A stretch of 64,000 nucleotides of DNA, counting the filler, from Stramenopiles sp. TOSAG23-6 (taxonomy: Eukaryota): NCBI GenBank assembly GCA_900128565.1. It is 21 parts of 21 records of this genome, joined end to end, with 100 filler letters (N's around TTAATTAATTAA, not from the genome) between each part and the next. Parts side by side here need not be neighbours in the genome. Positions count along the whole stretch, not along the records: positions 1 to 2,983 come from LT637715.1; 20 more parts are not named here. One strand, 5' to 3'. Numbering within the stretch: the first letter of the stretch is position 1; every line of letters begins with the position of its first letter. The notes beneath the pieces are model-generated. The model was given only the letters and a program-made list of their open reading frames with translations. It was not told the DNA's origin and made no database searches. This document shows, piece after piece, positions 1,344 through 36,742 of this stretch. The position numbers were made by a program, and so were the translations under genes.

Positions 1344-2924
1344 CTACTACTACTACTTCTACTACTACTGCTACTACTACTACAACAAAAACAACAAATC
1401 AATACGTATCTGGAGAATCATTAATGTCACAAAGAAAAAACGTCTGGTTAGAGAATAAAATTTATTCTCATCTAGCAAAATTATGTACGGTATATAAACA
1501 TCAAGGAACATTGAATCATTCCAGACTTTTCCGTGAAGTATTAATTTGTTTAATGTCATTGATGAGAGCAAGCTGGCAAGCTCAGCAAAGATTTTCTGAA
1601 GAGGTCGGATATCGTCGCTTACGTCAGCTACTATTAAAAAGTGAAAAAGACCCATCACCGATTTTATGTTCTATGTTAATGTACGTTTATCGTTTTTAGT
1701 AAGAATTTTTAGTACAATTTGTTTTTTATATACAAAATTTCGTACCTAAACGTTATTTGTTTTTTTTAGGTCAATATTTTTTCACACTATATACGTATGC
1801 TTAATGATTGCACTGCTAGAGTTTGTCATGTGAAAATTATTCCACTTTTATTTAAATTATTACCTCATATTAGTGACGTCACTCGTCAATTGGATGTTGT
1901 TGTTCATTTAAAATTAGCTTTATTTGGAAGTCGCTCTATACCAAATATGTCTGAATGTAGTAGAATAGAACCTCCTCTTATAGATCAATTAATTGATGCG
2001 TTACCTAGACTCGATGCAATTGTTCAAAAATCAATGATTTTAGATTTACTTGGGTCTTTAGGAAATTGTATGTTTTATTTTATTTCAATTTCAAATTTGT
2101 TTCTTTCATACGAAATTTCGTACCTAACGATTGTTTTGTGATTTCTTGTTTTTTCACAATACATATTTGCTTACAGTCTCTCAAATGAAACGTTTAATTC
2201 AACTTATGCAACATAGAGGTCAATTTCAAAGTGCATTGGCTCCACTCATAATGGAAGCCTTACAATCAATGATTAGTATGAGACATGATGGTCCTCAACA
2301 TTGGTTTGAATTAGATGGTATTGCTTCCGGATTGGATATTTCATATGTATCATGTCCTACTTGGCAATCCCTCGATATAAAAAAAAACAAAAAAACAGGA
2401 TTACCATTTTGGCCCGTTCGTGGGTATGTTTAATTCTTTTCAATTTCGAATTTGTTTTTTTTTTATTTTTAGTACGAAATGTTGTACCTAACAAAAAACA
2501 TTTTACGGAAAAAAAAAAAAATATTTTTTCACAGTACATGTACTCTTTAGCACTTTGGTTACGAGTTGAACCTCCTGAAAGGGTTATGTCTACAACAATG
2601 AATGTATCGAATATTTTTCGATATCAACATAATAATGATGATAATAATAATAATAATAATCAACAAAATAATAATAATATTAACAATCAACAAAATAATA
2701 ATAATAATAATAACCAACAAAATAATAATAATAATAATCATTTTGAAAATAATAGAAAAGTTTTATTCAGTTGTGGTGATAAAAATGGAAATGGGGTTGA
2801 AGTATTCTTAAATTCTTTACGCATTGGAGTTCGAATTATAGAGTATAAAAAAGATATAATTTTATTGTCACCTCTTGAAGCAGCACTACCCGCATCAAAA
2901 TGGACTTTTGTTGTGATTCAACAT
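67..2924 (+). CDS. BEACH/neurobeachin-like protein, internal fragment with ConA-like domain; introns 912-1019, 1681-~1792, 2068-2164, 2424-2539, 2925-gap
   Basis: Spliced LGNYLLTVSQMKRL, GPQHWFELDG..SGL and WPVRGYSLALWLRVE, KWTFVVIQH resemble the N-terminal region of BEACH proteins. Confidence 0.65.
2424..2539 (+). mobile_element. Family intron, GT..AT (116 nt)
   Basis: cgt gg|GTATGT...CAGTACAT|g tac gives WPVRGYSL; shifting the register by -1 or -2 replaces the Gly with Val or Met. Confidence 0.85.
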
Positions 2925-2983: not shown

Positions 2984-3083
2984 NNNNNNNNNNNNNNNNN
3001 NNNNNNNNNNNNNNNNNNNNNNNNNNNTTAATTAATTAANNNNNNNNNNNNNNNNNNNNNNNNNNNNNNNNNNNNNNNNNNNN
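2984..3083. other. Artificial contig spacer Ns-TTAATTAATTAA-Ns (first of 20, every ~3.05-3.08 kb)
   Basis: Identical 12-mer with stops in all six frames inside N runs; contigs between spacers shrink steadily from ~2982 to ~2945 nt. Confidence 0.98.
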
Positions 3084-3147: not shown

Positions 3148-3643
3148 ATGATCCGAAAGGTTTGTACATACGCAGATGGTGTCCTGAGCTTCGTGACAAA
3201 TCTGACTCTCAAATACATGAACGATACACAACAATTACTACAGTTGGACTTCCAGGTATTTTAAATTTATATTTTTTCAATTTCAAATTTATTTTTATAG
3301 TTGGACTTCCAGATATTTTAAATTTATATTTTTTCAATTTCAAATTTATTTTTATTTGTACATCATCATCCAAATGTAGTAAATATTTTGACTAATATAC
3401 CTAACAAAAAAATTTAAATGTGACATATTTATCAAAAATATATGAATACCACCTTTGGAATCAAAATGGAATCCTCAAAGTTCAAAACGTTCTAAAAGTT
3501 CGAAACGTTCAAAGAAGGGTAAAAACACGTGGATCCAGAGGCGNGATGCTGTAAATGTCGGTACTTCAATGAAAAGCGAAGTGACTCAGCAGAGGAATAA
3601 CCGCGGCAAACCAAGGCGTAGAAAAGTTCAAGGTGCTTGGTGA
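3148..3643 (+). CDS. Cryptochrome/photolyase family, C-terminal fragment (probable intron ~3256-3443)
   Basis: YDPKGLYIRRWCPEL...QIH motif of the FAD-binding domain end; last exon frame is inferred. Confidence 0.65.
3242..3355 (+). repeat. ~57-bp direct tandem duplication spanning an exon end/intron start
   Basis: AGTTGGACTTCCAG(G/A)TATTTTAAATTTATATTTTTTCAATTTCAAATTTATTTTTAT twice. Confidence 0.85.
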
Positions 3644-6065: not shown

Positions 6066-6184
6066 NNNNNNNNNNNNNNNNNNNNNNNNNNNNNNNNNNN
6101 NNNNNNNNNTTAATTAATTAANNNNNNNNNNNNNNNNNNNNNNNNNNNNNNNNNNNNNNNNNNNNGAAAAAAAATAAAACATAC

Positions 6185-7233: not shown

Positions 7234-7859
7234 TTAATTTTTTCGTCTTTCAAAATAAATTGCAATTCCAATAGAAGCCATCAAAGTAAAAAAACTGAGC
7301 ACAAGTAACCAACTAGCAGAGCTAGGATGAGTACTCAGATGTACTTTGCCCATTTATCATGCCAAGCAGAAAATCCGATTATAGTGAGTAAGATACTGAT
7401 ACATGTAATTAACCACCAGAGATTAATAGAGCCACATAGATGTAGTGGGAAAAATATTTTTGAAGTCAAAAAATCGTACGATTTTGTTAGGTACAAAATT
7501 TACAATGAAAAAAAAATGAAATTCATTATGAAAAAAATAAATACAGTCATATTTGGTTTCCAGGAGAGGCATACAAAATTTCCAATTTGAGTGAATATAG
7601 ATAAAATACAAAATGCAAGGTAAGCTTGTCCACCGCTTTCATATTTATCTTTATCGCTGCCCATAGAGTTGTAACTTTGACATGTGCCTCCTTGGTGGCA
7701 AAACTTATCCCACTTCAAGTAATACTTTGTATCTGATATCTTTGTGTAACTCAAATTACCATCCACCATTGCACTGAAATGAAATACAAATGCAAGTAAA
7801 AGAACACCGAAAACAATAATATTGCTTTTGATATTACCCAATATTGCAGTCATGGCCAT
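7234..7859 (-). CDS. Small multi-pass membrane protein (claudin-like topology), intron 7440-7544
   Basis: Hydrophobic segments and W..FC...C motif; frame after ~7340 is uncertain (stop or frameshift). Confidence 0.45.
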
Positions 7860-8063: not shown

Positions 8064-9118
8064 TTATTTTGTCTGTTTTTTTTTTACAACAGAATTTGCA
8101 AGCGACATTCCACGACTTGACTGTTTCAGTTTCTTCTTCAGGGCTTTATCAAGTGCATTTTGCACTGAAATTGTTTGTCCCATTTTTACTGGCGATAAAA
8201 CATTTTTATCCATAGCTTCTATGTATTTTGGAAAAATATTTCAAAAANNNNNNNNNNNNNNNNNNNNNNNNNNNGTACAAAATTTCGTACGAAAAAAAAA
8301 TCGAATTTGAAAAAAAATGAAACATACATATTCGCACCATACTGAACTAATGCCGTGACTGCCCCACCACAATTCAATAAGCATGCAATATGTAATGGTG
8401 TTCTCCCCTGATTATCAGTTGCTGAAACAATAGGATGAATAATATCTTTTACTTTTTCAATATCTAGACGATTTTTCTCTTTAAGAATTCGTTTTTCTTT
8501 TTCAGTAAGTTCTTTTGGTTTGTCCCATGGATGACTTTGACTGGATGTAGAGTCATTTAATCTTTCACACATTTTGAAAGTAAGTTTTGGGCTTGATGGG
8601 CTTGATGACAATTTACTATCCTCTTTACTCCCCCCTGCATGTATTTCAAGTAACGCTTCACTCTGTATGTGTGCTAAAAGTGCCCTTGTGAGTTCGTTTG
8701 AATGTGATGCACGATGTAAAGCTGTTAGACCGTCTTTGTCTTTTATAACTAGAGAAGCACCGTGCTTAATTAATCGAAGAGCAACATTTTCATTTCCTTC
8801 ATCACAAGCAACCATTAACGGGGTAGTTCCATTAGGAAGACATGCATTAACATTAGCACCTTTATAATTTTGGAAATCTATTTCATTTAACCAATCTGGC
8901 ATCACTCCAGTGATGTTAAACTCTTCCTCCGCTTGAGCGAGAAGACTTTTTTATACAGTGAAAAATATGTCACAAAAAAATCATTAGGTACGGAATTTGG
9001 TACAATTAATTCTTCATTTGAAATGAATAATGAAAACGTATATCTATCTGCCCTCCATCAAGTAAAATCGAGACTAGATCTATATTTCCTTTTAAACAAG
9101 CAATATGTAATGCAGACC
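8064..9118 (-). CDS. Ankyrin-repeat protein, C-terminal part; introns 8951-9041 (AT..AA) and 8221-8327 (GT..AT)
   Basis: SALHIAC..GN, GTTPLMVAC, GRTPLHIAC; splicing yields YGANIEAMDK. Confidence 0.9.
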
Positions 9119-9550: not shown

Positions 9551-12220
9551 TCAAATCATTCTTATTAAGAAAGTTCTAACATCCATTGGTCGTAGTGTAA
9601 CCGTGGGATAGGAAAACGGAATTTGTTTTTCGTATGAATGCTTTTTTACATTTTCAAAATATTCTTCAGTTTCAGCGTTTGCATATTTTGTTTTCCATTT
9701 ATGTTTCGAATGTTGATACTGCTGCCAATCACGATTACCAGTCAAAGTAGTTTCATGGGCTTCGATAACTTTCATACCTGATTGTGCAAATATATTTTCA
9801 AGATTAACTTTGACGGGAAGTGAAAGAATTGGGTGTTCATTTGCTTCATAAAGATGAGATAAACGCAATAAATATTGTCCGTCATTGTACGATGCATAAT
9901 TCGATGTCAACGTAACAAGTTTGACATTATCAGGCAAAGCAGCAGACACAGCACTAAATAATGATCCATATTTAGACAATCCTTCATTTGTAAAAGTCAA
10001 AAGAGGAGGAAAATTTAATGATTCAGAGAGTTTTCGTCTAATTGAATGTACTGATTTGATTGTATCAAATATTAACCAATGTCGCCCTCGCATAGTTAAA
10101 CCTTCAGACATACAACCACCATCACCTTCATGGCCAAATTCGCCCATTTGGCCAGGAGCTGCATGAATGTCGTTACTACATTTAAAAAAATATTAAAAGT
10201 GTGAAAAGATGAGATATTATGTAAATACAAAAAGAAATAGGTATACAAGTGAATAAATATATGTTAACATACCATCCGGACATTGTTTCGTTCAATGCCT
10301 CTTGAACGCCACGAGCATCATCAGCTTGTAATCTTCTATGAACCATAAATTCAAGTTCTCCATCATGTAGTGATGACCCTCCTTGACTAACATCAGTAAG
10401 AATAGCTAGTTCATGATGTATATCATTAATGGACATGAGTGCATTTACAGGGTAATAATTACCTGCGACTGGCTCAGAGATTAAATATGGATGAGGATAG
10501 GTAGGCCCACGTTTGTTTCTCCTTCGCTTTACCATTTCTTTACCATTTGAGTCAGTGTACCATTCTCCTTTACTCTTGAGTCCACTCTTGTAACGAATAA
10601 CAACCTCCTTGCCCCAATTATTTGGCATTGGCTTTCCATTATTGAACGCGACAGGTGGAAACCATGGTGTATCAACTGGTATTGGTCCTGCGGTCCACTC
10701 TAGCTCGACGTATGGCTTCTCATTGTACAAACGAATTACATGAGATGCCCATCGAGAGAATGATTGAATAACTTCCGTGACGACTTCACCATAATTTACT
10801 GATAATGATGGAGCTACTTTTGGTCCAGGATAAAAAAAATTCAGTCGAATTAGGGCGGAAGATATATGCCCCAGATGCTTGTGAAGAGCATGCAGGTTCT
10901 CTAATGCCTACTGGAATACTTGAGTCGTACTGAGTGCAACCACCTATTGAGCTGTTGTACCACCCCCATTGAATTGATAGATCTGTAGAAATACCTGAAA
11001 TCTTGTTGGTTATCTTAGTGACATGTCCATTTTTAAACTCCAGAGAATACATCTCATTTTCAACTGTTCTATCCAATGTACTTGATGTTTGATTGTGACG
11101 TAATAACTGATTATGCACAACGACTAATGGTGGTTCATTGTGCTGAACTGTTTCTGTTTTCTTTGCATGAAAAGCGGCAAGTCCTACGGGTGGAATTTCC
11201 ATATCAAAGACTAGCACATGATCTGCCTTATTTTCGAGTTTCATCTTTTCCATTTTTATTTCAGTCGAATTCATTCCAAATGAATTTAAGTATAAAAGGG
11301 GAAGAGACTTGGTTCGTTCATCAATAGCTATCACTTGACTAGGTAATAGTTTTCCATTTTCAGTTGTCACTTCCCAAAACTTACCATTAACTGGAATTCT
11401 AGCAATGCTTTTAGCTTTATGTGCCCGAGGATTCCATGCTGCAACACCAAACGTATCTATTCCAGTTGTAGCAGCACACATTGTCATATTTAAGCAATTT
11501 CCAGCAGTATGGCAATTACAGTGTTGTATACTGGTAGCATTAACTTTAAGAATTTTACTGATTGCCAATGAAATTCCAGCTTGTACTTCCACACTTGACT
11601 CAGATATCCTTTGTTCATAGTCATCAGCAACAGATTGACGTTCAGTTCCAGACATACCATCATGATGTGTTGCTACTCCAACAGTACCTTCAAGTGAATC
11701 GGTCCATGAGTCACCCACCGTTGGAGATTTTTTCGCTGTAGGACAATGTACCTCTTTTGCAGTAGTTGTTGTTGCAATTTCAAGTTGCCTTGCTGACATG
11801 AGCAAGTTCGTTGCAAACCGAACTTGTCGTTTTAAAGCAGGTCGACTAGTAAAGTAACCTGACCAATAATTGTGGCTACTGTCCAATAGCGGGAAAATAT
11901 CATCAGGGCGTACATTCCATGAAACATTTGAAAGTTTCTTTTGATCAGTGTATATGTATTTTGGAAAAATATTTCAAAAAAAAAAAACTTAAATTTGTTA
12001 GGTACAAAAAAAATAAAACGTACATGGTTGGTGTAGAATAGAATGCATTCACTGTATTATTTAAGTTTACATAATGAATTAATTTATCCATATTTCTATA
12101 CCAATGATCTACATTTTCTTTTCTTTTTCATTAGTTTCATTTGTATCAGCAAATGGAGGGCACGACATCAATGGGAATATCATAAAAGGCCTCGCTCCAG
12201 AAGAAATTGCAATTACAGCG
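9551..12220 (-). CDS. GH38 lysosomal-type alpha-mannosidase (5' truncated); introns 11954-12023 and 10176-10272; homopolymer frameshift ~10835
   Basis: FYSTPTIYTD, YWSGYFTSRPALK, HHDG.SGTE, SGAYIFRPN, YTDSNG, VAGNYYPVN, ELEFMVHRRL..DD.RGV.EALNE. Confidence 0.95.
11954..12023 (-). mobile_element. Short family intron, GT..AT (70 nt)
   Basis: acc at|GTACGT...GTACCTAAC...AAAATACAT|a tac restores GH38 YSTPTIYTD. Confidence 0.88.
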
Positions 12221-25955: not shown

Positions 25956-27461
25956 ATGAAAATAACATGTGTATTGTACATTTGTTTGATGCTTTTTAAC
26001 ACTACAAGTGTTGTATATGCCATTGCCTTGGGAAAAGTAGGAGGACCTAGAGGACGAGGAAAAAGCAAGAGCACAAGGAAGAGAAAAGCAGAACAAAGGA
26101 AAAATGGTAGACGCCGGGACAATCGCAGAGCAGAACGAGCAGCAAAAAACGAAGCAAAAGCAGCAAAAGACGAAGCAGCAGAAGCAGAAGAAGCAGCAAA
26201 AGCAGCAAAAGACGAAGCAGCAGAAGCAGCAAAAGCAGCACACCGATTGAAGATGGAGAGAGTTAGAGGTGAAATTCACGCAAAAGCATTAAAAGCAGCA
26301 GCAGAAGAAGGATTAGACGGATCCGAATGTAAGGATCAATACGGAAACACTGGTCTAGTATATAAAAATTGTAATACCAAACCAGGAAAATATTCCTTCG
26401 TGGCAAAATGGAAAAAACCACCTCGTTGTACCTTCTGTTCACAAACTCGCAAGGAACTCTATTTCTCTGAATATCCAAACGTTAAAAGGGTAAACAACAG
26501 AAACCCCTCAACATTGGAAACACTGCTCGATGGTATATTTTCATTATGAAATATGAATTTCAAATTTATTGTTTTTTTTTTGGTTTTCGTACGAAATTTT
26601 GTACCTAACAAATTTCGAATTTAATTTTTTGTACAATACATGTGTACACCATTGGAGTATTAGTTTCGCAAGTGAGATTCAATCAGACGTGATTCCTTTA
26701 CAGGATAATATTAGTGCACTTGTCGAAGAACTACAAAAACGACAATTTACTGATACAAAAAAATTACAACTACAATGGAAATATCTTTCTAAAGGTATTA
26801 AAAAACTTGAAAAAATGTACACTGACAAATGTATGTTTAATTTTAAAAATTTAATTTTAAAAATTTAATTTTTTTTTTATAGTAAATTTTGTACCTAACA
26901 AAAAAAAATTTACTAAAAAAAAAATATATATTTTCCTACAATACATGTCCAAAGAATGAAAATGGTTCATATTCATTTGTACCAAATCATATATTAGATG
27001 AAATTTCTACTGAGTATAAAGCGTTGATTCCAACTGCAATTCGCTGTGCAAAGGAAGAAATTTTACAATTATCTTTCAAAAGTGAAAATAATGAAAATAA
27101 TGAAAATAATGACAACAAAGAAACAAAGAATTTATTTGAAGATTTACAAGAAGAGTGTTGGGAATTGAGATCTGAAATAGAAATGAAAAATACAAAATTA
27201 AAAAATATACAAGTAAAATATGAAAAAAATTCTTTAAAACTAAAATTATGTACAGATGGAAATGTCATTTTAAGTCAGAAATTAAAATCTGCCCATGAGC
27301 AAATTCAATCCTTACAAAATGAATTAAAACTTTCACAAAATACATTATTAAAAGAAGTCAAAGAGGCACCTGGAAGTCACACACAGATTATTAATAGCAT
27401 GAGGCGGCAAATACGTGAAAGAATGAAATTAACAAAGCCACCAGAACAGGATGTTAGAATT
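25956..27461 (+). CDS. Hypothetical protein (signal-like start, EAAKAAK repeats, coiled coil); introns 26533-26641, 26831-26946
   Basis: Three ORFs join in frame at family GT..AT boundaries; whether the 5' part truly belongs to the same gene is uncertain. Confidence 0.45.
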
Positions 27462-27764: not shown

Positions 27765-29073
27765 ATTCAAAAAGTATTATTCAATTTCAGTTATTTTGTA
27801 TTGGTTGTGGTTTTTGTACAGTTTTGTGTTTATTATTATCAAGAATACTTTTATCATATACATTTTCTAGTGATAATATTCTTGAAAGAAATGGACAATT
27901 TAGATTAAATGAATATTCTACAAATACATCAAATAGTTTGACTAAAAATACAACATCTTGTGGTTGTTTGTCTTTTCTTGTATCTAATAATAATAATGAA
28001 ACAAAATATTCTACTTCTAGTAGTAGTAGTAGTAGTAGTAGTACTGTAAAAAATCAACAAAATCAACAAAATCAACAAAAACAACAAAATTATTTGTCTA
28101 ATAATAATGAAACAAAATATACTATTGTAAAAAAACAAGAAAATAGTAATAGTATACAAAAATGGTATAATTGGTTTATGTCACATATGTCAATATTTAT
28201 TTATTTATTACAAAACAAAACATTCATGTACGTTTTTCAAATTAAATTTTTATTTTTTTTTCATACGAAATTTTGTACCTAACGATTTTTTTTCTTTAAA
28301 AAAAAATATTTTTTCACAATGTATGACTTTTACAGCAATGAAATTTTTCCAAGAATTAAACTGTTTATTATTTTGGACGTTTACTTCAAATTTCTGCTCT
28401 ATTTTATTCGGTCCTACACAAGAACAAATACAAAATCAAAATAATAATAATTTATTTTCTTTCAAAAATATCAAAAATATCAAAAATATTAATACTGAAA
28501 ATAATAATAATAATTTATTTTCCTCAAAAAGTGTTGGAATCATTATTGGTATATCTTCATGTATGTTTCTTTTTTTCAATTTCAAATTTATTTATTTTTC
28601 GTACGAAATTTCATACCTAACGATATTTTTTTGTGATTTCGTGTTTTTTCACAATACATGTATGCCAATGGTAATGACGTATTATACTGTACAACGAATT
28701 GCAGTGTTGGGTTCACATGAAATTGTCAAAAGATTACTACAATTTCGTATACTTATTATTATGTATGTGTTATTTTTTTTTTTTTTTTTTTTAATTTTTT
28801 TGAATTTTTTTTTTGTACGAAATTTNNNNNNNNNNNNNNNNNNNNNNNNNNNNNNNNNNNNNNNNNNNNNNNNNNNNNNNNNNNNNNNNNNNNNNNNNNN
28901 NNNNNNNNNNNNNNNNNNNNNNNNNNNNNNNNNNNNNNNNNNNNNNNNNNNNNNNNNNNNNNNNNNNNNNNNNNNNNNNNNNNNNNNNNNNNNNNNNNNN
29001 NNNNNNNNNNNNNNNNNNNNNNNNNNNNNNNNNNNNNNNNNNNNNNNNNNNNNNNNNNNNNNNNNNNNNNNNN

Positions 29074-30824: not shown

Positions 30825-31710
30825 GTAAAGTGGAATATCTCTTCTGATTGGCCTATATTTCGACCATCTGCTTCCATTGGTTTTATTGACACTCAATCGT
30901 ATAAAGAATGCAATGGAGTTTTTCTTGCCGGCGATAACTGGCCACTACGTGACGTCCATATTGGTTGCTCAACTCCAAAAATGTGCGTTTTTTCTGTTGT
31001 TTCTTTATTGAATTTTAAAAAAAATTTTAAATTTTATTTTTTTGTTTTTCGAAATTAACGATTTTTTTCAGACAAAAAATATATTTTTAAAGTACAGGGA
31101 AAATCTTAATTCTGAGAATGTGAACATTAGTGTTGTAAAAGGTTCATATTTATATTATCATTATCTCCAAGGAAATGAACGCGACAAGGGTTGGGGTTGT
31201 GCGTATCGGTCTTTACAAACGATTATGTCTTGGTTTCGTGAAAATCATTTTACGAGTTACCCGGTACCGTGTCATATTGATACGCAAAACACATTAGTCG
31301 ATATAGGAGATAAAGAACAATCTTTCATTGGTAGTACAAAATGGATTGGATCCACTGAAATTGGATATTGCTTACACAAATGGATTAATGTAACTTCGAA
31401 ATTTATATTCGTTACCTCAGCGGCTGATTTACCGTCCAAAGCGAGAGAACTCATTGAACACTTTGATACTCATGGAACTCCCTGCATGATCGGTGGAGGC
31501 CAATTAGCTTTTATTTTATTAGGCGTAGCTTTTGATACAGGAACAGGATTTGTTCGTTTTCTCATCCTCGATCCACACTATACAGGTCCGGATGATTTAT
31601 CAATCATTCAAAAGAAAACTGTACGTATGGAAGGGTATAAAGCTATTCCTTGTAGCTGGCGCGGAGAAGACGCTTTTAATAGAAATTCTTCGTATAACAT
31701 TTGCTTATAA
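30825..31710 (+). CDS. UFSP2: Ufm1-specific protease (peptidase C78), C-terminal part; intron 30983-31097 (GT..AG)
   Basis: YYHYLQ, DKGWGCAYRSLQTI.SW, FIGS..WIGS.E, GTPCMIGGG, FLILDPHYTG. Confidence 0.92.
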
Positions 31711-33906: not shown

Positions 33907-36742
33907 CACTGCGTAATAAAGATCCTAACAATTTCCAATCAATGACGAGACACTTTGACCATTTATATATCAACCGACCAATTATTTTCGTATTTTCTTT
34001 AATTTGTTTTGATTTCGTGTCAGTTTTTTTACCTTCATACCATACAATACTAATTAAATGGTTTACAAACTTTGTTATTAAATGTGTACAAGAAACTATT
34101 TCTTTCTCCATAGGTACGCAGTGTTTCCAATTACCTAATATAATACAAACATCGCTAATAAAATAATGAAATTCCCGATTCATTCCACAAGATTCTTCTA
34201 CATCAAGCAATAATCGAAGGCAAGGTAATAACCACATGTAATTTGGAAGAATATTTCAAAAAACAATTATTTTTTTGTTCAATTCAAAAAATTCAAAAAA
34301 ATTGTTTCGTAAAAAATAAATTTGAAATTGATGAGGAAACGTACAAACCTGCCCAAGGAGCAAATACTTCTGAACGATTCATTACAATGTTACAAATTAG
34401 AATTCTGGCATTTAATTTTGCAGTTTTATCGTTTAATCGAACATGTAAAAATCTCATCCACTCTGGCATTGGCGGAGGTTCAAATGTCTCATTTTTACTT
34501 TCATCAAAATCATCATATGTCGAAAGTCCCCAAGTTTTGTGAAAAAGTATTTTTAATTAAAAATATCGTCAGGTACAATTTTAGGGTTTTTAGGGTGTTT
34601 AGGGTGTTTAGGGTGTTTAGGGTTTTCATGCAAAAACAAATGTAGATAAAAAACATTCAATTTTGAAAACGTACAATTTTTCCGAAACGTCTTATTCATT
34701 TTATCAATGACACAAAGTAATGGAATTGTGCATGGATGAAGGTTCACTTCGTCCAATACAAAATTACTATTCACCCCAGCGCTCAATAAGCCATCAGTAT
34801 CTTCATCATTGTTTTCATTCATTTCATTTTCAATTTCATTATCACAAATAATATCATTCTCATCGGTGTCTTCAATACTATCGTCAAATTCTTCTTCATC
34901 GTATTCTTTTTGCGAAGTCAATTGTGAAGTCGATTGAGAAAATCCAACACCTGACAGATTTTGGCTGATACTGCTTCCATTGAGATACTGAGATGACAGA
35001 ACTTTTAAATCTGAATTGTTTTGAGATAATGAATTTAACTCAGGCCTACGAAAAGATGATAATTGTCTATGTGTTGCTCTTTTCCAATCAATACTTTGAA
35101 ACTTTGGATTTGACGTGAAGGAATACATGAATAGTAAAAAAATATTTCATTTTTTTTCGTTTTTTTTGTTAGGTACAAAATTCACTACGAAAAATTTAAA
35201 AAAAATGAATTTTGAAAATGTACGTCTCGCCTTTCTTTGCAATATTGTTCCAAAGAAATTCATTTTTGTTTGGTGATTCTTTAAAAATTAAACCCCTATA
35301 ATACTTTTCTTCACTTTGTGTACTGGAAATCACCTGAATTAAACAGTTCAATGCAGCACAACAATATTGTTGAAAATATTCAGATGTTGTACTCGTAGAT
35401 GAAATGGCTGCCAAACGTGAATAACGGGACACGTGAGTTGTAAATTCATTATATTTTTTTTTACCTTTCTTTTCGTTTTCATATTTTTCAGCTGTTTCTT
35501 TATTCAAACCAAGAAAAGAAAAATTGATCTTTTTTTTAATATCATTTTGTTTTAATCGAAGTATCACAAAAAGCAATTCTAAAATACGAAACGCACCTAT
35601 TCGAAGTACAAATTGAGACTCTTGTATTTCATCATTTTTTCTAAATTTTATAGATGCAGCTAAGTATCCTATTATTGATTTTTCCTTTCCCATAAAACGA
35701 CTAATAGTCAGAAAGGGTACATCCAATCGAAAAGGATTCGTTGTCATAATTTCTAACACTTGATTTTTTTCAAATTGTTTTAACATTGGAATACAAATAT
35801 GTTCAATCATTCGAAGTCGTACCACGGACGATTTTGACGAATCAACAAAAATAGAAAAACACCAGAGCCACAAAGTTCTCGAATTCCAATGAGGAAAAGT
35901 CAAAGGAGCAGTAGCAATTGATAAAAGTGTCGACTCAATAAGTGAAATATATTTGTGATTTTTTTCACTCATTGAAGGAATTAATAATTGTAATACAGCA
36001 ATGGCACCAGTATTTTGTAAAAGTTGAAGTACAGCCTCCAATATCAACTGAAAATCTCGAGATTCTGAGGAATTTATATTCAAAGACGTTGATATTATAG
36101 GGAATGTGTTTACAATTACATTTTGTAGCGCATTATGAATGATATCAACAGGTGAAGCAGTCTGCATTGTTAATGAGTTCTTAGATAGGATTGTACCTTG
36201 AATAAATCCAGGATAAAAAAATGGTAGAATTCGTGATATTGTCAATACTTTTACACGAATAGGCGAATTTATGTGTAGAAATTGTGCAATACATATTTGT
36301 ATAAATTTGTTATTTCGAAGTATATCTACAGTGACACTCCCAAGCAATAAAAGACTATGAATAATTTCTACAAACCACATCAAATGTATTTTGGAAAAAT
36401 ATTTGAAAAAAAAAAACTTAAATTTGTTAGGTACAAAATTTTTATAAAAAAAATATTGGATTTGAAAAAAAATAAAACATACATTATTCGCATTGTCTTT
36501 TACGAACTTACCAGGTAACCAAGAGGAGAATATACTAAGATTTTGTAGTAAGTCATCAACAAAATTTCGAGTAGATATACTCTCTGTACATCTTACATTA
36601 TTCGTGACATTCGGTTTTATAGAGTTACTGTTGGGGTTAGATTCATTAGATGTATTATTATTGTTTGTAGCATTATTATCCTCAGATGTTACCAAACAAT
36701 TGTTAGACATAGTTGATACAATAAATGATAATAAAGCCATAC
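33907..36742 (-). CDS. PRKDC: DNA-dependent protein kinase catalytic subunit, internal fragment; introns 36384-36482, 35127-35223, 34532-34674, 34236-34344
   Basis: CAALNCLI, YYRGLIFKE.P.KNE.LW.NI, LDEVNLHPC, PEWMRFLH, N.SEVFAPWA..WL.P, FHYFISDV...L.NW match DNA-PKcs. Confidence 0.85.

Follow-up and report, generated by a model that had tools for sequence, protein, structure and literature searches.

How is an intron removed that begins with a textbook GT, ends in AT and carries an unused AG five nucleotides (nt) before its end? The question is raised by positions 2424-2539 of a 64-kb window of DNA (the whole stretch that was analysed, 64,000 nt) from Stramenopiles sp. TOSAG23-6, where a 116-nt segment interrupts the gene of a BEACH-type giant protein. 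We consider it reasonably probable that this segment is one copy of a high-copy, ~100-nt introner-like family that would be removed by the spliceosome, with the 3' cut placed by a conserved box, and that would have spread by transposition. The window consists of 21 contigs of 2,660-2,983 bases each, ordered by falling length, and represents several loci rather than one. The contigs are joined by N44-TTAATTAATTAA-N44 linkers (e.g. 2984-3083 and 6066-6165), and features crossing a linker are not real. The sequence is AT-rich (~30% G+C), and its genes use the standard genetic code.

The focal intron (2424-2539, + strand, GT..AT, phase 2) follows exon sequence ending in CGTGG, runs from GTATGTTTA to CACAGTACAT and is followed by GTACTC. 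Its 5' splice box, GTATGTTTA (2424-2432, +), corresponds to the family consensus GTAYGTTTT obtained from position counts. Downstream lie an internal family module, CAATTTCGAATTTGTT (2441-2456, +; 16 window matches against 0.2 expected), which is not a known splice signal, and GTACGAAATGTTGTACCTAAC (2472-2492, +), the family core with the branch-site-like TACCTAAC. The A at 2491 is presumably the branch point, assigned by analogy with yeast TACTAAC. A T run and 3' box, TTTTTTCACAGTAC (2524-2537, +), recognized from the position table and the alignment, precede the terminal AT (2538-2539, +), which occupies the two variable positions after TAC; the unused AG lies at 2533-2534 (+). Once 2424-2539 is removed, WPVRG is joined to YSLALW, and the protein reads WPVRGYSLALWLRVE, which aligns without a gap to WPARGYSLVFWLRIE in a 4086-amino-acid (aa) ortholog, P0121. 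This ortholog, a predicted protein from a EukProt gene model, emerged when the exon downstream of the focal intron was used as the query in a HMMER search, and the spliced protein of the first contig is collinear with it (E = 6e-151). Pfam searches with both exons flanking 2424-2539 gave no family match, and 'WPxxGYS' as a family motif therefore rests on P0121 alone. The exon after the focal intron carries an Asn/Gln-rich (AAT/CAA) insertion at 2630-2745 (+), where P0121 has a shorter, unrelated acidic/lysine stretch.

Whether such segments behave as introns was judged first from open frames. Donors and acceptors were anchored by position-weight matrices only, using no frame information, and for 30 of 34 motif-only pairs the longest open frames on either side were joined in the GT...AT register (P = 5e-11, with chance at 1/3). 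These 34 are what is left of 37 pairs (32 joined) after subtraction of three that cross contig linkers, two of which had passed by chance. Complete copies of the family were curated to a set of 45 on 15 of the 21 contigs, with many cut copies besides; 42 of the 45 join the longest frames, although this set was partly picked by frame and is not independent. The three exceptions are a tandem copy, an exon truncated where its contig stops, and a case in which the intron before it stays open in frame.

Homologous proteins point the same way. In the gene of an AMP-binding enzyme, which is interrupted at 24081-24207 (+, GT..AT), the upstream exon covers positions 5-179 of the AMP-binding Pfam profile and the downstream exon covers positions 180-224; the match ends with the very last upstream residue and resumes with the very first downstream residue. 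For the gene of an S9 peptidase, every donor or acceptor shift of up to 12 nt was scored against a profile of 81 homologs. Intron length was fixed at four junctions, the best variants shifting both ends equally, and the register itself was loose by several bases. The intron at 912-1019 (+, GT..AT, 108 nt, open in frame) appears as a 36-aa gap in the ortholog comparison, and leaving it unspliced costs 47 raw units against P0121. Taken at the level of frames and homologs, these results confirm the predictions that 2424-2539 is a real intron and that the family is excised in the GT...AT register.

The exact register was scored against P0121 by shifting both intron ends together, in raw BLAST units. 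Shifts of -3 to 0 were best at 912/1019, where a Leu is conserved, and shifts of -2 to 0 at 1681/1792 (+, GT..AT). At 2068/2164 (+, GT..AT), where the junction codon is TAT and the Tyr is conserved in the ortholog, the best shifts were -4, -3, -1 and 0, with -2 costing 1 unit and +1 and +2 costing 9. At 2424/2539 they were 0 to +4, whereas -1, -2 and -3 each cost 9 raw units and lose the Gly of RGYS, as the initial annotation had stated for -1 and -2. Shift 0, in which the intron starts at the conserved GT and ends two bases past TAC, is the sole shift common to all four junctions. It also turns four copies into ordinary GT..AG introns (16166-16281, -; 30983-31097, +, family-like; 50042-50132, -; 56552-56636, +), in agreement with the earlier statement that the shared register coincides with the GT..AG members. 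Two further points made there held up: a -2 shift at 24081 turns PKG into PKD, and at 56552, where the intron splits the codons of GHGG in the S9 peptidase gene, it turns into Gln a His that is conserved in P0005 and P0006, -2 being absent from the 14 best variants. The preference for VMRVPF over VRRVPF at 55984 proved weak, all shifts there lying within 1.5 bits against the 81-sequence S9 profile. That a single register fits all was confirmed through the P0121 junctions, but the four sites originally cited leave both 0 and +1; the unique register is supplied by 912/1019, 1681/1792 and 2068/2164, which the initial annotation had not used. Predicted excision in this register, from GT to the second base after TAC, and in no other shared one, is shown to restore open frames and gap-free homolog alignments.

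In this register the terminal dinucleotides of the 45 copies are GT-AT (29), GT-TT (5), GT-AG (4), AT-AT (3), AT-AA (2) and GA-AT (2). Their 5' ends are GT in 38, AT in five and GA in two; their 3' ends are AT in 34, TT in five, AG in four and AA in two, so that 41 of 45 lack an AG. The seven copies with no GT at the start comprise two beginning with GA (55761-55859, +, and 60563-60664, -, both GA..AT) and five beginning with AT (8951-9041, -, AT..AA; 12892-12983, -, AT..AT; 20537-20688, +, AT..AT; 56279-56372, +, AT..AT; 60709-60803, -, AT..AA). Following both GA-starting introns, the next exon also starts with GA. A T at -3 occurs in three of the five AT-starting introns versus about one fifth of the GT-starting ones, numbers too small to call covariation.

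AGs are nevertheless present close to many of these ends. A TACCTAA-type box can be recognised in 39 copies, and 18 of these have one or more unused AGs between the TACCTAAC box and the 3' end; in five of the 18, the focal intron among them, an unused AG lies 5-7 nt before the end. Stops had been predicted if such AGs were used, and both were found: the focal AG at 2533-2534 with donor 2424 reads GGT ACA TGT ACT CTT TAG, with the stop after five codons, and the AG at -7 in the S9 peptidase intron 55761-55859 gives AAT ACA TGA. If the donor were the second GT of GTATGT, the focal AG would be in frame and add 3 aa, but this reading scores 14 raw units lower. Used or not, an AG seems not to be needed for the predicted junctions, and these frames and alignments show nearby AGs to be passed over.

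It is very improbable, in our judgement, that the true junctions lie elsewhere, whether in an AT..AC-like register two bases to the left or at nearby GT/GC..AG sites. The -2 register would yield the same mRNA in 26 of the 45 copies, and for 43 of 45 an in-frame GT/GC..AG pair free of stops can be found no more than 60 nt from the motif-anchored ends, so that gene predictors always have a pair to choose; the existing gene model of the S9 peptidase, P0001, uses such sites or reads through. Yet the -2 register incurs the losses already described at 2424, 24081 and 56552, the GT/GC..AG pairs insert or delete 1-34 residues, and the F/L-rich inserts of P0001 are missing from every homolog. Enumerated GT/GC..AG alternatives, a check that the initial annotation had called for, were lower-scoring at all seven non-AG junctions tested. 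Against the S9 profile they were at least 19 bits worse at 55761 and at least 32 bits worse at 56279, and 55984-56076 (+, GT..AT, open in frame, length fixed) has no in-frame alternative within 60 nt. Against P0121 they lost at least 14 raw units at 2424, 28 at 2068, 20 at 1681 and 21 at 912. DNA-PKcs homologs for use at further junctions did not appear among proteins of 925-2640 aa, a length band that leaves them out.

What, then, would place the acceptor? The initial annotation had proposed the 3' motif, the distance from the branch point or both, and had denied a scan to the first AG. The intron ends at a fixed register after the conserved 3' box, TTTTYCAMAATAC plus 2 nt in the position table of 45 copies, whichever bases those two are, and the AGs passed over after TACCTAAC in 18 of 39 copies speak against a first-AG rule. 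A fixed distance from the branch point was not borne out, the putative branch A lying 29-81 nt (median 42) from the intron end. Since this distance varies and the register after CAMAATAC is fixed, the acceptor appears tied to the box rather than to branch distance or the first AG.

This box is one of several parts that recur throughout the family. The sequence GTACCTAAC, with at most one mismatch, occurs 63 times in the window against 6.3 expected. Copies are 58-204 nt long (median 108) and lie in unrelated host genes, including those of BEACH, S9 peptidase, AMP-binding, DNA-PKcs, mannosidase and J-domain proteins. Their elements come in the order GTAYGTTTT, one of two alternative internal modules, TTTCGTACGAAATTTTGTACCTAAC, a T-rich stretch, (G)AAATATTTTTYCAMAATAC and two bases. 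The internal modules, CAATTTCRAATTTRTT (16 occurrences in the window, 0.2 expected) and AAACAAAAAAATCGAWTTTTTT (10 occurrences, 0 expected), are not splice signals and are common to different contigs in these alternative versions. In the 5' box, per-position counts are G1 40/45, T2 43/45, A3 44/45, G5 38/45 and T6 44/45. The TACCTAA-type box is present in 39 of 45 copies, with TAC.T.A invariant across the 37 copies that entered the family alignment. A T run at -16 to -11 is found in at least 37 of 45, and the 3' box CAMAATAC stands at a fixed register (A-9 43/45, A-7 42/45, T-5 40/45, A-4 38/45, C-3 33/45). Intron phases are flat (15/14/16). RNAalifold predicted no base pairs conserved in the family alignment; fold z-scores ranged from -2.65 to +1.15 in 10 copies, and the intron ends pair in three of 10 single folds. 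The 45 do not include copies interrupted by contig ends or N runs, nor three copies with long T runs and hence unreliable length (~50624-50804, 51399-51646 and 52707-52978), the truncated copy at 55585-55628 or a divergent intron near 10150-10290. Of the 42 contig ends, 19 lie in copies (within 100 nt of a family motif), and it is therefore this repeat family that breaks the assembly into ~3-kb pieces.

Each copy carries what would be its own splicing kit, made up of GTAYGTTTT, the yeast-like branch box TACCTAAC, a T run and the 3' box TTTTYCAMAATAC. Exon 2 would begin exactly two bases past the 3' box, those two being mostly AT, and the excised piece would comprise the element together with one of the two copies of a duplicated 2-bp target site. 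The spliceosome, and most likely the major (U2-type) one, would carry out the removal, GTAYGT, CTAAC and the T tract being signals of the latter; second-step or U2AF-type recognition would be relaxed such that the 3' box, not an AG, positions the cut. Yeast-type introns of the major spliceosome have the form GTATGT...TACTAAC...AG. The family shares with them the 5' GTATGT/GTACGT, the branch box TAC(C)TAAC and a branch-to-3'-end distance of tens of nucleotides, and differs in ending with AT, TT or AA and in possessing an extra conserved 3' box. More tentatively, and short of expecting it, we suggest that the main spliceosome of this lineage may no longer need an AG and may cut 2 nt past a box brought by a mobile element. 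Were this true, a transposon family could seed thousands of GT..AT (or ..TT, ..AA) introns, nearly the whole intron complement, and a re-tuned 3'-site recognition would be implied, involving U2AF-like proteins, second-step factors or small nuclear RNAs (snRNAs).

A minor (U12-type) spliceosome, transformed and now dominant, could instead remove these introns, in parallel to the expansion in Physarum with its co-evolved snRNAs and signals; we regard this as unlikely. The end set (GT-AT, AT-AT, AT-AA, GT-AG; G and A at +1) is the one that the U12 machinery accepts according to the relevant part of PMC1557818, and the portion of bioRxiv 10.1101/2020.10.12.336362 on intron ends finds the same set enriched in Physarum U12 introns, which also have short inverted ends and a 2-nt direct repeat. 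In sequence, 7 of 9 positions agree between RTAY....TTT and RTATCCTTT, and ACCTAAC is similar to CCTTAAC. On the other hand, positions +5 and +6 are GT and not CC (+5 G in 38/45, +6 T in 44/45), such that the family has RTAYGTTT in place of RTATCCTT, and nearly every intron seen in the window is of this type. U12 branch sites lie near the 3' end and are followed by no pyrimidine tract (compare bioRxiv 10.1101/2020.10.12.336362), whereas the branch-like TACCTAAC of the family stands 29-81 nt upstream of the 3' end, with a T tract after it.

The exon bases next to the introns bear on the origin of the family. Exon positions -2 and -1 are AT in 25 of 45 copies and TT in eight, against window dinucleotide frequencies of 0.10 and 0.13. 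They equal the last two bases of the intron in 26 of 45 (shuffled mean 19.9, permutation P = 0.003), the AT..AC-type and GT..AT-type descriptions of these 26 yielding the same mRNA. All introns that end in TT, five in number, also have TT upstream (hypergeometric P = 5e-5), and a single gene contains three of them. The within-intron repeat exceeds shuffled pairings in total (2.78 observed against a shuffled mean of 2.39, P = 0.011) and on the upstream side (P = 0.005), and is not significant downstream (P = 0.27). The candidate terminal inverted repeat of the element is limited to GTAY...RTAC, 4 nt. The boundary repeat, these GTAY...RTAC ends, the flat phases, the alternative modules and an exonless tandem pair together fit, and do not prove, an introner-like family in which a short DNA element would enter coding sequence with a ~2-bp target duplication, and in which the element and one duplicate would be spliced out. 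Neither the descent of the introns from one dispersed element nor the repeat of the last two bases in the preceding exon had been noted in the initial annotation.

The tandem pair comprises 20537-20688 (+, AT..AT, 152 nt) and 20689-20796 (+, GT..AT, 108 nt), placed head to tail with no exon between them; either one copy was inserted at the end of the other, or the two are removed jointly or successively.

Rather improbable to us, and slightly more so than removal by a minor spliceosome, is that these are ordinary, vertically inherited introns that resemble each other through long, strict splice signals, with no mobile element and with the AT before GT forming part of the signal. There are no near-identical copies (median pairwise identity 0.52), the AT/GTA likeness at the two junctions is mostly shared consensus, as the shuffled value shows, and a crude test for linkage of 5' and 3' variants as subfamilies was not significant (P = 0.19). 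The blocks shared between the signals, in alternative versions on different contigs, count against this explanation, and so do the tandem pair at 20537-20796, the assembly breaks at copies, the flat phases and the TT/TT agreement in 5 of 5.

Several points weigh against the reading of an element-derived, box-directed intron family. The spliceosomes examined to date act poorly on introns whose final base is U. Near-equal canonical readings exist at 49803-49926 (-; GT..AT; +4/+4, same length), at 60709-60803 (+4/+1, +1 aa) and at 2424 and 17576 (+4/-5, +3 aa). The upper bound of the register (shift of at most 0) rests on one ortholog, P0121, a predicted gene model, and shift -1 is excluded by junction 2424 alone. 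The case for a transposon is a modest one: only 2 nt are repeated at the boundaries, a signal driven by the five TT cases, the downstream repeat is not significant, the inverted repeat is confined to GTAY/RTAC, the copies have diverged (best pair 0.83), and neither an empty site nor an autonomous element was seen. In addition, a comparison with sequence reads, which covered one contig (contig 19, 55248-58195) and three metatranscriptome runs, with parts that RNA does not cover being uninformative, found no spliced joint in RNA-library contigs, and the RNA-library contig X8 record 25 (56244-56463, depth 2.6) runs unspliced through 56279-56372.

The unspliced contig bears on whether any RNA splicing takes place. 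RNA libraries can contain DNA, and intron-family segments reach a very high summed depth in these RNA libraries; the contig and the depth could reflect DNA carry-over, nascent RNA or stable excised introns. The junctions are accordingly predictions that were not observed in RNA, and the protein collection contained no transcript-derived peptides of this organism across 55984-56076, the best match having 42% identity. We nonetheless find it extremely improbable that the segments are removed by DNA elimination (cf. the internal eliminated sequences of ciliates) or are artefacts of single-cell amplification or assembly. The one intron-retaining contig and a fragmented assembly with homopolymer errors can be cited for this explanation. 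Seawater DNA contigs, however, run exon-intron-exon with no joint at the intron boundaries, the signals are spliceosomal, and the genes are unreadable unless the segments are removed. In the independent seawater DNA run X1, record 3 (56126-56589) passes through exon, intron and exon with at most one difference, and no joint was present in X1 at any intron boundary. Intron segments of contig 19 have a summed word depth in the thousands in this run, against 4-10 for their flanks, and X1 contigs from elsewhere start to match exactly at position 55984 and at 56552, and cease to do so at 55629; the limits of the repeated unit are therefore those of the intron as delimited here. Pattern scans of metagenome contigs yielded no further loci with family copies.

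Among known systems, introners are short, DNA transposon-derived intron families, described from Micromonas pusilla, Aureococcus and dinoflagellates in the relevant parts of PMC11282704 and PMC12130899, and the introners of Amoebophrya (PMC11282704) are among the closest parallels in those descriptions. As characterised there, introners share with the window family the look-alike short introns in unrelated genes, the element-borne splice signals, the lack of phase bias and the marine host, and perhaps also the short direct repeat across the boundaries, with an excision that would restore the original coding sequence. They differ in having GT..AG or other standard ends in these descriptions, whereas 41 of 45 window copies lack an AG, their 3' end consists of whichever 2 nt come after the element, and the duplication is only ~2 nt and statistically modest. 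In the tunicate Fritillaria borealis, AG-AC and AG-AT introns derived from miniature inverted-repeat transposable elements (MITEs) are reported, in the sections of PMC11282704 and bioRxiv 10.1101/2025.08.15.670264 devoted to them, to be recent, transposon-like and more numerous than GT-AG introns; their non-canonical ends are handled by the main spliceosome of the host, and AT is a frequent 3' end. Their 5' end, by these accounts, is AG and their ends are diverse, whereas the window family has a textbook GTAYGT and departs only at the 3' side; the tunicate and the stramenopile also belong to different kingdom-level lineages. For Physarum polycephalum, the passages of bioRxiv 10.1101/2020.10.12.336362 on its U12 expansion describe tens of thousands of transposon-like introns with short inverted ends, a 2-nt repeat and GT-AT, AT-AT and AT-AA ends, which annotation pipelines had discarded. 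The same passages give its signals as GTATCYTT and TTTGA, the latter 9-12 nt from the 3' end, and non-canonical ends as 0.8% of introns, versus 41 of 45 here. These Physarum-type U12 motifs, tried as candidates in the window family, are absent from it. The nonconventional introns of euglenids and hemistasiid diplonemids resemble the family, so far as PMC12621601 and PMC11282704 describe them, in the dominance of non-GT-AG ends in a marine protist, a suspected MITE origin and junction repeats. They differ in having no conserved ends, no pyrimidine tract and extended end pairing in the account of PMC12621601, whereas the window family has conserved ends, a T tract and no predicted conserved structure. 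What is new relative to all these systems is a canonical 5' half combined with a 3' end that lacks AG and is apparently placed by a box within the element, together with a near-complete dominance in the sample.

A search of the available literature returned no account of such introns in MAST or other stramenopiles. The MAST genome papers (PMC5778133, PMC8163842) and the Incisomonas paper (PMC12614181) describe standard, GT-AG-oriented gene prediction. Large introner surveys start from annotated introns and drop families with unfamiliar ends that lack RNA support, according to the procedure outlined in PMC12130899, and would therefore miss a GT..AT family. The gene model P0001 (55248-56400) illustrates the effect: it translates 55984-56076 as protein, leaves out a piece of an exon and stops within 56279-56372, and its intron-coded F/L-rich inserts occur in no homolog. 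Gene sets of this organism probably mishandle the family throughout. Because this sole gene model for one gene reads through introns, the protein sets, completeness scores and functional inferences for uncultured marine stramenopiles of this sort may be systematically damaged. If RNA confirms the junctions, about nine in ten introns of this free-living eukaryote would lack a terminal AG despite a textbook 5' site and branch box, and the organism would offer a natural experiment on 3' splice-site choice, linked to the geometry of transposon insertion.

Protein affinities lead us to regard the organism as probably a marine stramenopile of MAST-3 type. The sole near-identical protein (98%) in a large protein collection is P0001, whose source name begins GSMAST32; the next matches are an oomycete protein and other EukProt proteins. 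Seawater metagenome runs contain DNA nearly identical to contig 19. An origin from a marine diplonemid, an idea suggested by the non-canonical introns of that group, was dropped, given that diplonemid introns have no conserved ends and the protein affinities are those of a stramenopile. Proteins encoded in the window include DNA-PKcs, PP2C, alpha-mannosidase, fibronectin-III, an AMP-binding enzyme, MAP kinase, dual-specificity phosphatase, Vps26, U-box, UVSSA and S9 peptidase, all of them eukaryotic. Rfam and tRNA scans of the window gave no matches and no snRNAs. The alpha-mannosidase gene has a frame shift within a T8 run at ~10835-10845 (-; SGAYIFRPNSTEFF / YPGPK...), which looks like a homopolymer error of the assembly and not an intron.

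The remaining curated introns are GT..AT where no other ends are given. On the + strand they lie at 3256-3443, 26533-26641, 26831-26946, 28228-28324 and 28561-28659. Those on the - strand are at 7440-7544, 11954-12023 (70 nt, alpha-mannosidase gene), 13148-13258 (UVSSA-like gene), 16783-16883, 17576-17710 (unused AG at -5), 18005-18208 (204 nt), 34236-34344, 35127-35223 and 36384-36482 (both in a DNA-PKcs-like gene), 40231-40366, 40448-40554 (Vps26-like gene), 44405-44501, 49156-49281 (downstream exon cut by a contig end), 49408-49525, 50252-50405 and 60882-60989, the last in a J-domain protein gene, as is 60563-60664. The five GT..TT introns, each with TT upstream too, are 19833-19930, 20072-20217 and 20318-20420 on the + strand and 34532-34674 and the short 44634-44691 (58 nt) on the - strand.

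Three places in or next to family members have unusual structures. In the truncated copy at 55585-55628 (+), the S9 exon directly meets GTACCTAAC, and the element thereby lacks its 5' half; a removal of 41 nt scores better against homologs than one of 44 nt, the match to the DNA contig X1 record 1 stops at 55582, and either a collapse in the assembly or a genuine deletion may account for the copy. A tandem duplication of ~57 nt at ~3242-3355 (+) comprises the exon end and the start of the intron 3256-3443, and the exon-intron junction consequently occurs twice, in GG/TATTTT and GA/TATTTT versions. Finally, a telomere-like repeat, CTAACCCTAACCCTAA, is located at 24354-24369 (+), just past the 5' splice site of an intron starting at 24349.

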